A stretch of DNA of 64,000 nucleotides, taken from positions 4,377-68,376 of the forward strand of contig JBHHUB010000001.1 in the NCBI GenBank assembly GCA_046753625.1, in the 5' to 3' direction. A program made the position numbers and the translations under genes. This document shows, piece by piece, positions 6,381 to 56,382 of the stretch. This stretch comes from Phycisphaerae bacterium. Its GTDB lineage: Bacteria > Planctomycetota > Phycisphaerae > UBA1845. The number at the start of each line of letters is the position of its first letter. Within the stretch, counting starts at the first letter, position 1. The notes beneath the pieces are model-generated. The model was not told where the DNA came from. It saw only the letters and a list, made by a program, of their open reading frames with translations, and ran no database searches.

Positions 6381-6411
6381 CCCAGCGCGGCCGGCTGCCA
6401 GGACGCTCGTG

Positions 6412-6510
6412 CTTTGACACACCTAAACTTTCGGGTTCGTTACGAGTCAGAGCCGCGGGCGCCAGCCCTCGGACTGGTCCCACCGCTGGCGCGGTGGGCT
6501 CTGATTCGCG
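6412..6510 (+). repeat. ~100-nt structured repeat, copy A (sense orientation)
   Basis: The sequence is TTGACACACCTAAACTTTCGGGTTCGTTACGAGTCAGAGCCGCGGGCGCCAGCCCTCGGACTGGTCCCACCGCTGGCGCGGTGGGCTCTGATTCGCG. It is near-identical to the reverse complement of 7983..8082 and similar to the reverse complement of 55130..55229. Confidence 0.85.
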
Positions 6511-6652: not shown

Positions 6653-7855
6653 CTAGCAGGAGCGGCGTGAGATTTCGAGAAAGAGGGCGAACTCGGCCTG
6701 GGACAACTCGACCCCACGGCGGGCCATTACTTTGCGCGCGACGTCCCGCAGTTTTTCCGCGTCGCCGGACTGGACACCTCGCTCGTCAAACCAACTCAAC
6801 GTCGGCACGGCCTTGGGCGCCACGCTGGTTGATACCACGTTGCCCGCAAAACCGATCACCGCACCGGTGGGGAGTGCCGCGTTGATGCCGATCTTGGCGT
6901 GATCGCCGATGATCGACCCCAGAAATTGAGCCCCTGTGTCAACATCACGTTTTCCCAGTCGAACGCGTATCGAACCGTAGGTATTCTTGAGGTCGGAGTT
7001 GGTCGAACCGGCTCCCAGATTTACCCAACTACCTACGTAGCTGTGCCCGAGAAACCCGTGGTGTGGCTTGTTGCTGTAGCCGTAGAACGTGCAGGCGTCG
7101 AGTTCGCCGCCGACCTTGCATACCGGTCCGATCGCACAACCGCCGTGCAACCAGGCATGCGGATGAACGTGCGAACCGGGACCGATGTAGGCTGGGCCTT
7201 CGATCACGGCGTAGGGGCCAACGGTGACGTCATGGCTGATGAAGACCGGACCGCCGTTCGTATCCAGGACGGCCGTCGGGTGGATGCGCGTGCGCACGCC
7301 AACGTGCAGCCGGTCGGATGCGCCGCTGACCTCCGGAATCGGTTCTTCGATCACGGCGTCCTCTGCCGTCCATTGCTCCGCGAATCGGTTCGAGGTGTTG
7401 AGTACCAGATCCCATGGGTACTCCAGCATGGTCCCACGCGCGTTATGGGTGGGCTGGCCGGAGATCGCTTGCCGCAACGCGGCGGCGTCCAGCATGGTCT
7501 CCGCCTTCAACGCGCCGGCCAGCGCGCGGTCACAGACGACAAAAGCCACGTCACCACCCAGCGTGCCTATTGCCGGTGCTTCGGGAAATGTGGTCTTGTC
7601 GGGGCACAGCCAGCGCCCGTTTACGAGCACATCGCCGGTGGTCGGAGTGTGATTCACCGGGGCACCGCACCGCTCGGCGGCGACGGACGCCATCCAGTCC
7701 CGCGTCCAGATTCCGGCCACGCTGCGCCCGGTGCATTGGGCGGCTCGATCCATCAGGAGCTTGCGGCCGAGGCGCAGTTCAAACAGGGTGCGCCAGCAGG
7801 TCAGCGGCTCGAGTTTGGACGTGCCGTGGTCCTCGAAGAGTAGGATGCTGTCCAT
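6653..7855 (-). CDS. GlmU-like sugar nucleotidyltransferase / left-handed beta-helix acyltransferase family protein
   Basis: Track ORF of 400 aa. The N-terminal half is nucleotidyltransferase-like. The C-terminal half carries hexapeptide repeats (IGPGSHVHPHAWLHGGCAIGPVCKVGGE...VGSWVNLGAGSTNSDLKN...IGDHAKIGINAALPTGAVIG). Confidence 0.75.
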   Translation of the reverse strand: MDSILLFEDHGTSKLEPLTCWRTLFELRLGRKLLMDRAAQCTGRSVAGIWTRDWMASVAAERCGAPVNHTPTTGDVLVNGRWLCPDKTTFPEAPAIGTLGGDVAFVVCDRALAGALKAETMLDAAALRQAISGQPTHNARGTMLEYPWDLVLNTSNRFAEQWTAEDAVIEEPIPEVSGASDRLHVGVRTRIHPTAVLDTNGGPVFISHDVTVGPYAVIEGPAYIGPGSHVHPHAWLHGGCAIGPVCKVGGELDACTFYGYSNKPHHGFLGHSYVGSWVNLGAGSTNSDLKNTYGSIRVRLGKRDVDTGAQFLGSIIGDHAKIGINAALPTGAVIGFAGNVVSTSVAPKAVPTLSWFDERGVQSGDAEKLRDVARKVMARRGVELSQAEFALFLEISRRSC

Positions 7856-7861
7856 GGGGAA

Positions 7862-7890
7862 ATTATATCGTGGATGACGCGTGCGCCCAA
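7862..7890 (-). promoter_or_regulatory. candidate promoter giving a leaderless glmU-like mRNA
   Basis: Minus strand reads TTGGGC-N17-TATAAT-TTCCCC-ATG. A perfect -10 hexamer lies only 6 nt upstream of the start codon, and there is no Shine-Dalgarno sequence. Confidence 0.4.
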
Positions 7891-7982
7891 GTCCGGCCGC
7901 CCCGTAGCTCAGCCGCCCAGGCTAGTGCTGCATCACACCCCAATCTATGGGTTGTCGCTGCCCGAGCCACCGGAATCGGGCC

Positions 7983-8082
7983 CGCGAATCAGAGCCCACC
8001 GCGCTAGCGGTGGGACCAGTCCGAGGGCAGCCGACCGCGGCTCTGACTCGTAACGAACCCGAAAGTTCAGGTGTGTCAAAGC
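7983..8082 (-). repeat. ~100-nt structured repeat, copy B
   Basis: The reverse complement matches copy A almost base for base. Differences are confined to the central hairpin and the loop of the CCCACCGC/GCGGTGGG hairpin (TGGC vs TAGC). Confidence 0.85.
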
Positions 8083-8120
8083 ACTCGCATGGTCACGCCG
8101 CCGAGGGCTGCTGTGCTCAT

Positions 8121-8160
8121 GGGCAAAAGACAAGGGCTTGCGCAGAAAGCACAAGCCCTT
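8121..8160 (-). terminator. Rho-independent terminator
   Basis: Minus strand reads AAGGGCTTG-tgctttctgcg-CAAGCCCTT followed by GTCTTTTGCCC. Confidence 0.6.
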
Positions 8161-8720
8161 CGTCACGTCTAAACGACCCGACCGCCGCAATGCCGGTGAA
8201 CGCTAACGGACGGAACCCTTTCGATAATGGGGTAAGCCCGCGGAAACCCGGACCGCCAACCTCAAGAGGGGTCGGTACGTCGTTTGGTTTCAACCTTCGA
8301 GCTTTCCAAGGTTCCTCTATAAGTTCCAGCCAACGAATCGCGCCCTGCCGAACATGAAAGTCCGGTCGCTTACGACTGCTACAGTATATCCTACCGGCGG
8401 CCCTCAGCCAAAGCCAAAAAGGGAAAGACTCGTCGAACAGCTCTAACCTTCCGTCGGCAACGGGGTTAGTTGCGCCGGCTTTTCTTGAGGGGGTCTCCGT
8501 ACGCTCGCAATACCGGCCGGTATCACCGGATGTGTGGCAGCATGCGCCTTGGCGACTGAAACGGCGCATACCGCGTGACGCCGTTGAACCCATTATCGGG
8601 CCAGGACACCCACGTGGCGGTGGCCGATAAAACGGGCCGCGCTGGTGGCGTTGCGAAGTTCCACTCGACAAATGGGTAGGGTAAGCGGTCCGTGTTTGCC
8701 TTCTGCGGCGGTTTGCTCAT
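8161..8720 (-). ncRNA. candidate large structured non-coding RNA (unclassified)
   Basis: The region has visibly lower GC than its flanks and no convincing ORF. It contains many local hairpins: ATGCGCC/GGCGCAT, CCGGT/ACCGG, AACCTT/AAGGTT, CCACGTGG. It also has long-range complementarities (CGATAATGGGT at ~8596 with ACCCCATTATCG at ~8232; CGTCACG at 8580 with CGTGACG at 8167). It ends directly at the 8121..8160 terminator. The 5' boundary is unknown. Confidence 0.3.
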
Positions 8721-8833
8721 GTTTGCCCTGGAAGAGAACGATCAATTGTCAAAGGTTGGCTGGTGCGTCGGTGTCGCGTCACTCGTAGGCAAGGGGCCCG
8801 TCGCGGCTGCGCGGGCGGTAGGCCCACGCACGA

Positions 8834-10186
8834 GTGGTGATCCGGCACTCGTTGATACACGCGCAGCCACACGCACTGGATCGCGTGTCTTATTGGGGGA
8901 TACCTGTCATTACGCCTAACGCAGAACGTATGCTGCTGGGGCCTTGGCCCCGGCGACTTCTTGGGGGATGCGCCGCGCTTACCGCGTGCGCGGTGGGTTT
9001 GCTATCCTACGCTCCGGTGGCCCCCGAGAGTGGTGGTTCGCTCTGGCTGGCCGGATCGGTGGCACCCGTGCTTGGCGCACTGGCGTGTATGTGGATCGTC
9101 GTGTGGCGTCTGTTGGGCCGGTGGCGTCGGAGGCTGGACGTTGCGCTGCGGCGGGAGGAAGCGACCGTCACGGAGCTGAGGCGGCAGGTGGGGCAGCTAT
9201 CAGATCAGTACAGCAGTTTGAAAGTGACGGAGAAAGCCCTTGCCGGTTCGCTGGCGGACAGCGAATCCGCCGTGTCCGAGCTTCATGGTCAAATCGAACA
9301 GCTCGAGGCGTTGCGCGAGGAACTCACCCGGACCCATGACGAAGCGACGCAACGCGACGAGGCCAAGAGCGCGTTCTTGGTTCGGATCGCACGCGAGCTG
9401 CGGACGCCGCTTACGGCGATTCTCGGGTTGGCTCACAGCCTGATTCACGAGGGTGATTTGCAGCAAGCTCCGCCGGAGCGTGTGGAAACGATTTACACCA
9501 TACGCCAGAAAGGGGAACAACTACTGGCCCTGGTCAATGAGATCATCGAATTGTCGGAGGTGGAGTCTGGCGTGGGCGTGCCGTCGCTGACGCGATGTCA
9601 GTTGACCGAGCTGCTGGGTGAGGTGCGCGGCTCGATGGAGGTCTGGGCAGATGCCAAAGATGTGACCCTTGTCATGGAGTACATCGGCCAGCTTCCTGAG
9701 ACCGTCGAGACGGACGCTACACGGGTTCAGCGGATTCTGCTCAATGTCGTGGGCAACGCGGTCAAGCACACCGATAGTGGCGGCATTCGCCTTCTCGTTC
9801 GATTGACGCGCGGCGAGCAGGAACAGCCGCAGTTGCAGATCGATATCGTCGACACGGGCATCGGCATGACCAATGAGCAGAAGGCGCGGTTGTTCCGCCC
9901 GTTCGCCGCCGTGGGCAGTGAGCACGAATACCACTTGCAAGGACCCGGTCTCGGGCTGACGATCAGCAAACGCTACGCGCAACAACTCGGCGGAGATCTT
10001 GAGCTTGTCGACACCGGCCCTGGATTGGGAACCCGTTTTCGTCTGTCTTTCGACGTCGGCGATTTGGAAGACGTCCGCATGTTCGAATTCGGCAACCCGG
10101 TTTCCGAATCATCGCACCCGACCGCCGCACAACCGGTCGACTGTGCCGCCGCCGCCGATACCGCTCCGGGGTCGTTACAGGTTTGA
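8834..10186 (+). CDS. sensor histidine kinase (two TM segments, coiled coil, HisKA + HATPase_c)
   Basis: H-box SAFLVRIARELRTPLTAILGLAHSL, N-box LLNVVGNAVKHT, G1 DTGIGM and G2 GPGLGLTISK are all present. An alternative start ATG at 8930 (MLLGPWPRRLL) is more plausible than 8834. No response regulator is adjacent. Confidence 0.85.
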   Translation: MVIRHSLIHAQPHALDRVSYWGIPVITPNAERMLLGPWPRRLLGGCAALTACAVGLLSYAPVAPESGGSLWLAGSVAPVLGALACMWIVVWRLLGRWRRRLDVALRREEATVTELRRQVGQLSDQYSSLKVTEKALAGSLADSESAVSELHGQIEQLEALREELTRTHDEATQRDEAKSAFLVRIARELRTPLTAILGLAHSLIHEGDLQQAPPERVETIYTIRQKGEQLLALVNEIIELSEVESGVGVPSLTRCQLTELLGEVRGSMEVWADAKDVTLVMEYIGQLPETVETDATRVQRILLNVVGNAVKHTDSGGIRLLVRLTRGEQEQPQLQIDIVDTGIGMTNEQKARLFRPFAAVGSEHEYHLQGPGLGLTISKRYAQQLGGDLELVDTGPGLGTRFRLSFDVGDLEDVRMFEFGNPVSESSHPTAAQPVDCAAAADTAPGSLQV

Positions 10187-13951: not shown

Positions 13952-14917
13952 CTACGCGAGCGGTTTCTCCAAGGACAACTCGATGATCCGTTGACAAAGC
14001 CGGTCGAAGCTCATGCCGGCGCGCTGCGCCGCTTTGGGAACCAGGGAGTGGTTCGTGAAACCGGGAATCGTATTGATCTCCAGAATGAAAGGTTCCAGAC
14101 TGTCGGCGTCGACCATGAAATCGACGCGAGAAAGCACGTCGCAACCCAATGCGCGGTGCGATTCAAGCGCAATCTCTTGGATTCGTCGAATCAACTCCGC
14201 CGGCAAATCGAGATCGAAAAGATACTCCGTATCGTTATCGACGTACTTGGCTTCGTAGTTGTAAAACTCCCGCTTGGTTCGGATTTCACACACGGGCAGG
14301 GCTTGATTTCCAATGATGCCGCAGGTCAACTCCGGGCCGGCGATGTAGGCTTCCACCAGCACGCTGCCGTAACGCTCGACCAAGCCCGCTGCGGCCGATT
14401 GAAGCTGGCGCGGTGTCTTGACGATCACCGTGTCAACGCTGCTTCCGGATGCAACCGGTTTGGTCACGGCGGGGACGGGGAATCGCTCGGCCAGGCCGGC
14501 GATCGTCTCGGCCGTCACCAACTCGTAGGGGGGCGTGGGCAGCTTGCATTGCCTCAGGCGATTCTTGGTCTTGACTTTGTCCATGACCAGACGCGACACG
14601 TCCGCCGAGGAGCCGGAGTAGGCCATGTGGCGGCGATCGAGCTCGGCCTGTATCGTGCCGTCCTCGCCGAACGTACCGTGTAGGGCGATGAAGACGAAAT
14701 CGGCCTCGTTTTCCAGAATGGCCAGATCGTCCGGGCCGATGTCGCCTGCGATCACGCGATGCCCCAATAGGTCAAGCGCCGTGGCTACGGCATGGCCGCT
14801 TTGCAGGCTGACCTCCCGTTCTACGCTCGGGCCGCCGGAAAGGACGATGATGTCGAGAACACCACCTGGCGAGCTTGCTGGGGCGATGGTCTGCATGGCG
14901 GCTTGCGTTGTGGTCAT
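13952..14917 (-). CDS. ddl: D-alanine--D-alanine ligase
   Basis: Diagnostic segments are VLSGGPSVEREVSLQSG, ALHGTFGEDGTIQAEL, KPVASGSSVD and EINTIPGFT (ATP-grasp). Confidence 0.93.
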   Translation of the reverse strand: MTTTQAAMQTIAPASSPGGVLDIIVLSGGPSVEREVSLQSGHAVATALDLLGHRVIAGDIGPDDLAILENEADFVFIALHGTFGEDGTIQAELDRRHMAYSGSSADVSRLVMDKVKTKNRLRQCKLPTPPYELVTAETIAGLAERFPVPAVTKPVASGSSVDTVIVKTPRQLQSAAAGLVERYGSVLVEAYIAGPELTCGIIGNQALPVCEIRTKREFYNYEAKYVDNDTEYLFDLDLPAELIRRIQEIALESHRALGCDVLSRVDFMVDADSLEPFILEINTIPGFTNHSLVPKAAQRAGMSFDRLCQRIIELSLEKPLA

Positions 14918-53648: not shown

Positions 53649-55154
53649 GTGATGCGCCAAGGCCCATCGGGCTCGCCTTCCGCGAGTCCTTGTCCGGAGC
53701 CGGTTTGGCTTCGTGTGATTTGCGGCGCGGCTTGGCTGCCGCTTTTCTATTTCGCCTTCCACGTCGCCCGATTGGGGGCGATTGCGAAGGACGTTCGCTC
53801 GTTTCAAATCGCTTACGTTGTCGCATTCCTCGGGTACGCCGGCGTGTTGTGGTTGTGGCTTCGGCGGCCGGCACCTTCGAATCGATCGCGCGCTCGTTGG
53901 CTGATTCCTTGCCTGCTGATCCGGGTGATTCCCCTAGCGGTCGAACCCACTGACGATGCCCATCGGTACTTGTGGGAGGGGCATGTCCAACTGGCGGGCC
54001 ACAATCCGTTTGCCCTGGCTCCTGATAGTGCCATTCTGGAGTCTCTTAGAGATGAGGACTGGGAGCGCATCAACCATCGGGATTACCCGGCGATTTACCC
54101 GCCCCTGGCGCAACTGGAGTTTTGGGCCGCCGCGGCGCTGCATCCTTCGGTGTATACGCTCAAAGTGCTTCACACCATTTGGGATGCGTTGGGTGTGGTT
54201 GTGCTTGCGTCCATCCTTGCCGCCGGGGGCGTCGCGCCGGCGCGTGCGCTGCTTTACGGGGCTTGCCCGCTTGTACTCACGGCGTTTTGCGTGGAGGGGC
54301 ATGTGGACAGCCTGATGATTCTGCTGCTGTTGCTTTGCTGGCGGTGGGATCAGCGCGGTCATCGCATGGCCGCGGGGATCGCGTTGGGCGGAAGCATTGC
54401 GGCCAAACTGTTTCCCGTCGTCTTCTTGCCGTGGTTCTTTTTTCGATCCAAGCGCGTGCTTTGCGCGGCCCTTGTGACCGTTGCGATCTTATACCTGCCG
54501 TATTGCAGCGCCGGTAGTTCGCTGTTCGGGAGCCTTGGTCGGTTCTCATCAACAGATTCGTTCTTCAGCTTTCTAGGTACGATGTTGGAACTGGACTTTT
54601 CGAATCCGGCCGTACGTCTTGGTCTTGCGGTTTCGCTTGCGGTGGTGCTGACGGCGCTGGCGGTAGGGGGGGCGCGTGGGTCGGCTCGCACGGGCGATGC
54701 ACCGGCAACGGTGGGGGAGGGGGCTGACGTTCGAAGGCGGCTCGGGCTGAAGCTCGTGGCTGGTAGGGGGCGCCGCGCGTGGCGGGCGTATGTGTGGCCA
54801 AGGGGGGACCGGACGGACGGCCTGGATTTCGGTCGATACGGCGTTGCTGCGACGGGCTTGCTTGTCTTGACAATCCCTGTCGTGCATTACTGGTACTTTG
54901 CGTTGCCGATGGTGTTTCTGGCTGTCCGTTGGCACCTGGCGTGGATGATGGCCGCGCTCCTGATCGTCGTCTATTTTGGCGCACAAGAGGCACAGGTGGC
55001 AACCGGAACGTGGGCGATGCCCGTTGATGCGCCGCTCTGGGTGTGGCGAGGCTTTGTCGCGGCCTGGGTTGCTCAAGTATGGCTTGATTACAGGTGCATT
55101 CGGCCTGCGCCGCTCACCGAGAACGGGGGCGCGAATCAGAGTCCACCGCGCTAG
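53649..55154 (+). CDS. GT-C-type polyprenyl-phosphate-sugar-dependent glycosyltransferase (DUF2029/PIG-M-like)
   Basis: About 12 TM helices. The first loop reads PTDDAHRYLWEGHVQLAGHNPFA...NHRDYPAIYPPLAQLEF. The last ~8 codons and the stop lie inside repeat copy C. Confidence 0.7.
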   Translation: MMRQGPSGSPSASPCPEPVWLRVICGAAWLPLFYFAFHVARLGAIAKDVRSFQIAYVVAFLGYAGVLWLWLRRPAPSNRSRARWLIPCLLIRVIPLAVEPTDDAHRYLWEGHVQLAGHNPFALAPDSAILESLRDEDWERINHRDYPAIYPPLAQLEFWAAAALHPSVYTLKVLHTIWDALGVVVLASILAAGGVAPARALLYGACPLVLTAFCVEGHVDSLMILLLLLCWRWDQRGHRMAAGIALGGSIAAKLFPVVFLPWFFFRSKRVLCAALVTVAILYLPYCSAGSSLFGSLGRFSSTDSFFSFLGTMLELDFSNPAVRLGLAVSLAVVLTALAVGGARGSARTGDAPATVGEGADVRRRLGLKLVAGRGRRAWRAYVWPRGDRTDGLDFGRYGVAATGLLVLTIPVVHYWYFALPMVFLAVRWHLAWMMAALLIVVYFGAQEAQVATGTWAMPVDAPLWVWRGFVAAWVAQVWLDYRCIRPAPLTENGGANQSPPR

Positions 55155-55229
55155 CGGTGGGACCAGTCCGCGGGCTGTCGCCCGCGGATCTGATCCGTAA
55201 CCAAGCCGAAAGTCTAGGTGTGTCCAATC
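55130..55229 (-). repeat. ~100-nt structured repeat, copy C
   Basis: The reverse complement aligns to copy A along its length. The central hairpin is perfect here (TCCGCGGGC-gaca-GCCCGCGGA). The outer stem has AG->GA swaps that keep A-U/G.U pairing. Confidence 0.8.
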
Positions 55230-55230
55230 A

Positions 55231-56382
55231 CTAGGGTTGGGCGGCCATCTTGGCTTCGCGATCTTCCTGGGAGCCGCCGGGCGTGTCGAATGTTTTCTTG
55301 AACACGGGGGGGCCGACGGGGGACGCCTGGGCGATGGTAAAGTATCCGTCGTCTCGAATTTTGCCGCTGATGATCGCCAGGTCCGCCAGAACCAGATTGA
55401 GCCGATCCATGGCCAAAACGGCCGATTCATAGAGTCGCTCGTCCTTGGCGATCAGTCCCGCGGTTCCCTTCCCTTGTTCGATGTCGTTGATCAGATGGAC
55501 CAGGCCGGTTGCGGCCTGTCCGACCTGAGCCAGAAACTGATCGAGGAGCTCGAATGATCCATCGAGTTTGGATTCGGTGCGATCGATTGCGCCGGTGGCG
55601 GTGTCGGCCAGCTTGGCGGATTGCCGTTTCCAGAGTTCGACCGTCTCTTTCAGCGTCGCGCTGGCATCCTTCAAGTCCCGGACAACGCCCTTGACGTCCG
55701 ATTGGACTTCCACGTCGCCGAGAACCGCGTTGAGGTTGGCGACGAGCTGGTCCATCCGCTCGACGACGGTGGAAATGTTGGCCATGGGCGGGGGCTCGCC
55801 CAGCGCGGGATGATCCACGTCGGCTACGCTTCTCTGTTTGATCAGTTCATCGAGGCTTGCGGCCACCGGCTCGGCGGCGACGGCGAGGTTACCGATGCCA
55901 TCGAGCGTTCTTTGGAAGGATTGTACCATCGATGGCGTAATGATTTCATTGAGCATGCTCGCCATTTCGCCGCGCATCGTGGCCTTTTCGCGCGGCATCA
56001 AGGCGGAGGTGACGTTCTCCTCGACGACGATGTTGATCTGTCCGGTTCCGATGCCCAGCGTTGCGCCGTAGACTTTGGCGTAGGCGCCCATGGGTACGGA
56101 AAACTCCCGACTGATCAGAGTGCGGATGACGACACCTTTTTCGGGGGCTGTGCGGTCCTGAAAATCCAGGCCGGAAACCCGTCCGATTTCAACGCCGTTG
56201 AGTTTGACCGGGGTTCCTTCGGCGACGCCGCGCAGATCACGCACGCCGACAATGCTGAGCTCCCAATCGGTCGTGCGCAGCCATGTCGGGGCTTCGCCGA
56301 ACCACACCATCAACACGCCGAGCGCGCCTATGGACGCGACGACGAAAACACCGACCAACAAGTCTCGCGATTTTTCTTTCAT
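55231..56382 (-). CDS. mlaD: MCE/MlaD-family protein with long C-terminal helical region
   Basis: An N-terminal TM is present (LLVGVFVVASIGALGVLMVWF). The Mce domain reads GVAEGTPVKLNGVEIGRVSGLDF. Confidence 0.8.
   Translation of the reverse strand: MKEKSRDLLVGVFVVASIGALGVLMVWFGEAPTWLRTTDWELSIVGVRDLRGVAEGTPVKLNGVEIGRVSGLDFQDRTAPEKGVVIRTLISREFSVPMGAYAKVYGATLGIGTGQINIVVEENVTSALMPREKATMRGEMASMLNEIITPSMVQSFQRTLDGIGNLAVAAEPVAASLDELIKQRSVADVDHPALGEPPPMANISTVVERMDQLVANLNAVLGDVEVQSDVKGVVRDLKDASATLKETVELWKRQSAKLADTATGAIDRTESKLDGSFELLDQFLAQVGQAATGLVHLINDIEQGKGTAGLIAKDERLYESAVLAMDRLNLVLADLAIISGKIRDDGYFTIAQASPVGPPVFKKTFDTPGGSQEDREAKMAAQP

Follow-up and report, generated by a model that had tools for sequence, protein, structure and literature searches.

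A probable divergent 6S RNA gene next to an alternative glmU in a Phycisphaerae bacterium

What occupies the long gap between a GlmU-like gene and a histidine kinase gene in a Phycisphaerae genome? The question arises in a stretch of 64,000 nucleotides (‘the window’), where an initial annotation flagged some 560 nt (8161-8720) as a candidate large non-coding RNA ending at an intrinsic terminator on the minus strand. The gap is indeed long, running from 7856 to 8833 (~978 nt) between the minus-strand GlmU-like gene and the plus-strand histidine kinase gene, and the drop in GC content remarked on upstream of the terminator is real (0.555 at 8200-8499 versus 0.62-0.70 in the flanks). The gene at 7855..6653 (minus strand) encodes an alternative bacterial GlmU (TIGR03991 match, 327.8 bits). 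The histidine kinase gene starts at 8834 or later; its start (8834-8932, plus strand) is uncertain, and protein conservation with L024, the closest relative, begins at VITP.AERMLLGPWPRRLL. On this alignment, translation may really begin at the GTG near 8877 or at the ATG at 8932 and not at the GTG at 8834. A blastn search of a plasmid collection gave no match.

We conclude that the gap holds a non-coding RNA gene of ~210 nt on the minus strand (8376..8167; ~255 nt counting its terminator), which is very probably a divergent 6S RNA (ssrS) of this Phycisphaerae (Planctomycetota) bacterium, and that the rest of the flagged stretch is ordinary spacer. A well-known bacterial small RNA, 6S RNA binds RNA polymerase and throttles it.

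Extent and fold of the conserved RNA

Related loci were gathered via the GlmU-like protein from Phycisphaerae and other Planctomycetota assemblies, with one genome per species, and the minus strand of the window from 8840 to 7856 was compared with them by nhmmer. In 21 of 22 planctomycete loci, a conserved element sits directly 5' of the GlmU-like gene and shares its strand. Conservation spans window positions ~8362-8121 in all 21 and extends to ~8490 in a few; in most loci it begins at window 8491-8362 (query 350-480), and L024 (74% protein identity) is the only locus that aligns farther upstream. A pattern scan of metagenome contigs, followed by scoring with the covariance model R1 described below, added 44 copies (100-198 bits), giving 65 homologs in total (21 Phycisphaerae genome loci and 44 metagenome contigs).

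The features of the locus are as follows.

8411..8406, minus strand: -35-like hexamer TTGGCT, with a 17-nt spacer to the -10 hexamer (promoter scan; hexamers alone are weak evidence)
8388..8383, minus strand: -10 hexamer TATACT (promoter scan), which in homologs is TGnTATAAT, an extended -10
8376..8167, minus strand: body of the probable 6S RNA (ssrS), one long rod with its 5' and 3' ends paired (model R1, covariation, RF00013)
8322..8376, minus strand: 5' strand of the closing (‘downstream’) stem, helices 1-4, aligned to the Rfam 6S consensus GUUCG..AG and CuGAgCC; within it the conserved AUGUUCGGCAG and GGCUGGAAC, the predicted template of the product RNA
8308..8321, minus strand: 5' side of the central bubble (UAUAGAGGAACCUU), holding U8319 and GGAACC (8315..8310)
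8231..8307, minus strand: terminal (‘upstream’) stem, helices 5-8, consisting of the helix GGAAAGCUCG/CGGGCUUACC and then inner helices and an apical hairpin
8249..8285, minus strand: near-invariant apical module AAACGACGUACCGACC...GGUUGGCGGUCCG with internal loop GUA/CG (invariant alignment columns)
8208..8230, minus strand: 3' side of the central bubble (CCAUUAUCGAAAG) and 3' strand of the bubble-proximal helix (GGGUUCCGUCC), aligned to E. coli CACCUUGAACCAAGGGUUC and the Rfam consensus CCCACCU..GGuUC
8160..8122, minus strand: intrinsic terminator of the probable 6S gene, with a stem at 8160..8132 (12 pairs, 5-nt loop) and the tail GTCTTTTG
8412..8720, no strand assigned: unconserved spacer outside the RNA (nhmmer conservation, fold z-score, broken ORF)

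In an alignment of 22 sequences, these parts run in the order -10 box, ~7 nt, conserved sequence (~210 nt), short variable linker, terminator hairpin. Indels come in lengths other than multiples of three, and conservation does not extend to any start codon. The TATAAT column block is kept in all 22 aligned loci, ~7 nt before conservation of the RNA begins, and places the predicted transcript start at ~8377-8375. The terminator, which had been picked out on the minus strand from the sequence of the window, is confirmed by its homologs, in which the stem (helix 9) is 93.8% paired with changes on both sides in 7 of 11 pairs. Because a conserved -10 box lies just 5' of the RNA and a conserved terminator just 3' of it, the alignment indicates a free-standing gene, flanked by a sigma-70-type promoter and an intrinsic terminator of its own.

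Folded, the RNA forms one rod made up of a long closing stem, a central bubble of ~14 nt per side and a terminal stem that carries the near-invariant hairpin. RNAalifold finds 55 pairs, with compensatory changes in 27. Extension of the outer closing stem and a helix added by eye (GGGAGGCUCG with CGAGCCACCC) bring the structure to 71 pairs, for which 88.9% of cells are paired over the 22 sequences, compared with 34-47% after the 3' partners have been shifted by 1-3 columns. Both sides have changed in 38 of the 71 pairs, and none of 500 shuffles matches any of five covariation measures. Double-sided changes are frequent in helices 5 and 6 of the terminal stem (13 of 16 pairs), whilst helix 7 and its loop are 100% identical across the 22 genome-set sequences; the 44 metagenome copies were retrieved by the apical motif and so are no independent test of this invariance. 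A 45-sequence alignment (41 distinct rows), fitted to the model structure, is 89.9% paired and shows double-sided changes in 44 of 60 pairs. Folded together, the RNA and its terminator (8122-8379) have an energy z-score of -2.6.

Assignment to 6S RNA and the leader alternative

The rod architecture and the motifs CUGAACCGAUA and AAGGGUUC resemble E. coli 6S RNA, which was therefore tested for directly. The covariation-supported helices flanking ~14 unpaired nt per side are the rod architecture of a 6S RNA. A covariance model, R1 (211 positions, 60 pairs), was built from Phycisphaerae rod sequences only; it scores 181 bits on the window copy (8165..8379). Applied to the E. coli K-12 ssrS locus (RefSeq), it gives 38.3 bits (E 1.7e-8 to 1.8e-6, R1 E-values being rough) for a match at 985-1164 that runs the length of the annotated ssrS (984-1166), the runner-up in the locus scoring 9.1 bits. 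In 264 kb of loci, ssrS is the sole outside match, all others being training homologs and their antisense strands (antisense at most 23 bits), and in 200 kb of E. coli sequence that includes ffs (4.5S), rnpB (RNase P) and the smpB region, nothing but ssrS exceeds 10 bits. When a sequence-only nhmmer profile was run on the E. coli locus, its top match too fell within ssrS, with the register unchanged (E 0.0065). A second R1 match in the window, at 14585-14688 (14.6 bits, E 0.055), was treated as noise.

Rod shape adds to the R1 score, as can be seen from L110, a pattern-scan pick that reached 31.7 bits and was rejected as a perfect palindrome scoring equally on either strand. Since rod shape and pattern pre-selection can together reach ~30 bits, weight is placed on the E. 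coli controls and on the reciprocal match from Rfam. The Rfam 6S model, RF00013, gives 139.8 bits on E. coli as a positive control, and reaches 39.4 bits (E 6.8e-7) over the full length of one homolog, L015. On the window copy it is the top family (8175-8366, minus strand), with a score of 17.5 bits and an E-value of 0.1 that is marginal by itself. The matches to L015 and the window copy emerged only when the sequence was trimmed to the RNA itself. Nucleotides common to the element and the Rfam 6S consensus are the GUUCG..AG/CGGCA helix, CUGAnCCGAUA, CCCAC and GGGUUC. Significant covariance-model similarity to established 6S RNA is thus found in both directions, and the earlier judgement that the stretch did not fit 6S RNA by eye was mistaken.

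An Rfam search had been suggested as a check. At gathering thresholds, nothing was found on the 6S element in the whole window or in 18 homologous loci, and E-value scans of 1201-nt and 281-nt stretches gave terminator look-alikes only. The default scans are empty because RF00013 scores the window copy, L015 and all 18 scanned loci below its curated gathering cut-off of 46.4 bits, which is an operational criterion for annotation and not a biological one. A scan for tRNA and tmRNA found none.

The location of the RNA could also suggest a cis-acting leader, a riboswitch or attenuator of the downstream alternative GlmU gene with the terminator as its expression platform. The RNA does end in a terminator, and it lies directly 5' of the GlmU-like gene on the same strand, at 34-280 nt, in 28 of 45 metagenome loci as well as in 21 of 22 genome loci. 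However, a riboswitch sits in the 5' UTR of the gene that it controls and always accompanies it, and this is not what is seen. A TATAMT box belonging to the GlmU-like gene itself precedes the start codon by 6-8 nt in about 20 of 23 loci (in the window, TATAAT at 7867..7862 on the minus strand, six nt ahead of the ATG at 7855), which points to a conserved leaderless glmU mRNA with its own promoter in Phycisphaerae. At least 10 contigs with enough downstream sequence carry the RNA without the GlmU-like gene, the Rfam scans gave no match to a riboswitch family, and the RNA has its reciprocal match to 6S RNA. The leader reading was rejected on account of the separate promoter and of the loci that lack the gene, and is very unlikely. 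A c-di-GMP-I riboswitch (63.5 bits) was observed ~3 kb away from the 6S gene of a single related Phycisphaerae genome (L006 1880-1959, minus strand).

A structured repeat of ~105 nt was also observed around the alternative glmU. It has three copies in the window (7981-8086, plus strand; 6409-6510, minus strand; 55130-55232, plus strand) with 86-95% identity, two of which flank glmU in inverted orientation. In each, a CAGAGCC/GGCUCUG stem encloses a hairpin, CCCACCGC-GCUA-GCGGUGGG; the folding energy is predicted at -43 to -46 kcal/mol, and Rfam offers nothing better than a weak Acido-Lenti-1 look-alike (19.5 bits). The repeat is missing at the equivalent place in L024, and a single metagenome contig has a copy (L042 3483-3584, 77% identity). 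Its features suggest a small mobile or REP-like element. Public short-read contigs end there; an exact-protein lookup with the GlmU-like gene gave Logan contigs only, which stop inside the repeat, 96 nt upstream of the gene, and so show nothing of the context beyond.

The remainder of the flagged stretch

The initial annotation took 8161-8720 as one structured unit, a single large RNA of ~560 nt and of unknown class. The absence of protein-family matches from the stretch and the folding of the whole 641 nt (z = -3.0) would favour such a molecule, but the fold signal comes from the 3' 258 nt (z = -2.6), whereas 8392-8720 gives z = +0.68, with 75 of 100 shuffles folding as well or better. The conserved -10 box at 8388..8383 would fall inside the proposed transcript, and sequence upstream of ~8490 can be aligned with the closest relative only, and poorly even there. 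The long-range pairings proposed between 8596 and 8232 and between 8580 and 8167 join spacer to conserved RNA and are absent from the covariation-supported fold; the spacer that holds their upstream partners is poorly conserved even in L024. Structure and conservation are limited to 8122-8411, so that comparison with relatives, proposed as a further check, supports that part of the locus and fails for the upstream half of the flagged stretch. What survives of the original claim is that a structured non-coding RNA ends at the terminator; at ~210 nt it is less than half the length envisaged, and is in all probability 6S. A single RNA of ~560 nt is hardly credible.

The remaining reading, a decayed or small protein-coding gene, can be set aside with a near-negligible probability, since, although 65-aa and 184-aa ORFs are present (8720..8523 and 8671..8117) and a block, ATGAGCAA, is conserved with L024, no ORF in the gap matches Pfam or NCBIfam, the 65-aa frame is MSKV-stop in L024 and so ends after 4 codons, and the 184-aa ORF overlaps the 6S rod, where substitutions keep base pairs and indels are not multiples of three. 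The gap holds no conserved ORF by these measures and its ORFs are spurious, in agreement with the view taken at the outset that no frame was convincing.

Two local features of the spacer may be mentioned. A block of ~50 nt at ~8708-8757 (CCTTTGACAATTGATCGTTCTCT...CAAACATGAGCAA) is nearly identical between the window and L024 amid diverged spacer between the 6S and histidine kinase genes. It could be a regulatory site or a distal promoter; it contains a TTGACA, with no good -10 box after it. A stable local hairpin of ~12 pairs at 8543-8570 (GGUAUGCGCCGU...GCGCAUGCUGCC, minus strand) lies in unconserved spacer, has no U-run, is not kept in L024 and is consistent with chance given the regional z-score. 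What was flagged as an unknown large RNA now appears as a housekeeping gene and ordinary spacer.

Product RNA, bubble refolding and relation to known 6S-type RNAs

In E. coli, product RNA (pRNA) synthesis on 6S RNA begins with ATP opposite U44 (PMC9670815). E. coli G42-A43-U44-A45 aligns to the gAUA of R1, and a U followed by an A is found at the U44-equivalent position in 51 of 59 sequences, so that the conserved template U at the 5' edge of the bubble that is characteristic of 6S RNA is present here. In the window this is U8319, the predicted equivalent of U44 and start of the product RNA. By analogy, the product RNA of this genome is predicted to be 5'-AUAAGUUCCAGCC, and that of the homolog consensus 5'-AUCGGUUCAGCC; the E. 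coli counterpart is AUCGGCUCAGGG.

In 22 of 22 sequences, GGAACC (8315..8310), the 3' part of the 5' bubble, is able to pair with GGGUUCC, which belongs to the 3' strand of the bubble-proximal helix. The alternative helix has a mean energy of -11.0 kcal/mol, versus -4.6 kcal/mol for shuffled bubbles, and shows matched changes (GAAACC/GGUUUC, AGAACCC/GGGUUCU). It and the native bubble-proximal helix are mutually exclusive.

A working scheme can be built on the E. coli and B. subtilis paradigm. The rod would mimic an open promoter and occupy the housekeeping RNA polymerase holoenzyme, and this occupation would damp sigma-70-type transcription under nutrient scarcity. On outgrowth, the polymerase would take the RNA as a template, initiating at the conserved U8319, and the product RNA would strip the bubble-proximal helix of its 5' strand. 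GGGUUCC, the 3' strand thus set free, could then pair with GGAACC of the 5' bubble, and the new helix would collapse the bubble and release the polymerase. We infer that this refolding step mirrors the product-RNA-induced release of polymerase in known 6S RNAs.

A 6S RNA has been sought in this phylum before. Infernal found none in the planctomycete Thermogutta, and a 2014 survey, as cited in the same paper, had none in Pirellula or Rhodopirellula (PMC5673643). Our full-text literature searches found no account of 6S RNA in Planctomycetota. Annotations of Planctomycetota usually lack 6S RNA because the threshold of the standard model is not reached. It is a tentative but quite plausible view that the RNA described here is the first described member of a Phycisphaerae-specific 6S subfamily, with 65 homologs, all below the cut-off where tested, and two lineage-specific features, the invariant apical module and the 5'-bubble collapse helix. 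If so, the subfamily supplies a 6S RNA that was reported as undetectable in Planctomycetota. The alignment of 66 sequences and the covariance model could be used to annotate ssrS across Phycisphaerae, and provide a starting point for other planctomycete classes, whilst the predicted product-RNA start and refolding helix are directly testable at the bench. 6S RNA is a global regulator of transcription in starvation and outgrowth.

The closest comparison is with E. coli 6S RNA (SsrS; RF00013). The two share the rod with closing stem, central bubble and terminal stem; the bubble-region nucleotides CUGAnCCGAUA, CACnUUG, AAGGGUUC and GUUCG/CGGCA; the alignment of the U that templates the first base of the product RNA; and covariance-model matches in both directions. 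In contrast, the Phycisphaerae RNA is the longer by ~25 nt, has an outer closing stem that is extended and one more internal loop, which is variable, falls under the Rfam cut-off, has its own terminator and adjoins the alternative glmU and not the gene for 5-formyltetrahydrofolate cyclo-ligase. It also has the near-invariant apical module, for which sigma region 4 or a further protein is a possible contact; no description of such a module was found in the 6S literature examined. The two RNAs differ too in the partner of the freed strand, since GGGUUCC would pair with the 5' bubble in Phycisphaerae, whereas the hairpin of E. coli uses the 3' bubble (from a reading of the ssrS sequence and PMC9670815).

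In B. subtilis 6S-1 RNA, refolding induced by the product RNA is involved in release (PMC8876501), and the alternative helix proposed here would collapse the central bubble in a comparable way, a likeness of mechanism only. 6S-Flavo, the lineage-specific Bacteroidota model of Weinberg et al. 2010, whose pipeline enlarged the 6S collection (PMC2864571), is an earlier case of a 6S variant at the level of a phylum that escapes the general model and had to be given a separate alignment. It belongs to a different phylum, and no Rfam scan gave a 6S-Flavo match to the Phycisphaerae RNA. The Ms1 RNA of Actinobacteria is likewise rod-like, binds RNA polymerase and is structurally related to 6S RNA (PMC9130861), but Ms1 binds the core enzyme, is ~300 nt long and is confined to Actinobacteria, whereas the homology seen here is to true 6S. 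Thus, the Phycisphaerae RNA belongs to a known family and is not a new kind of element; it is a lineage-specific form of 6S RNA that is missed at current thresholds.
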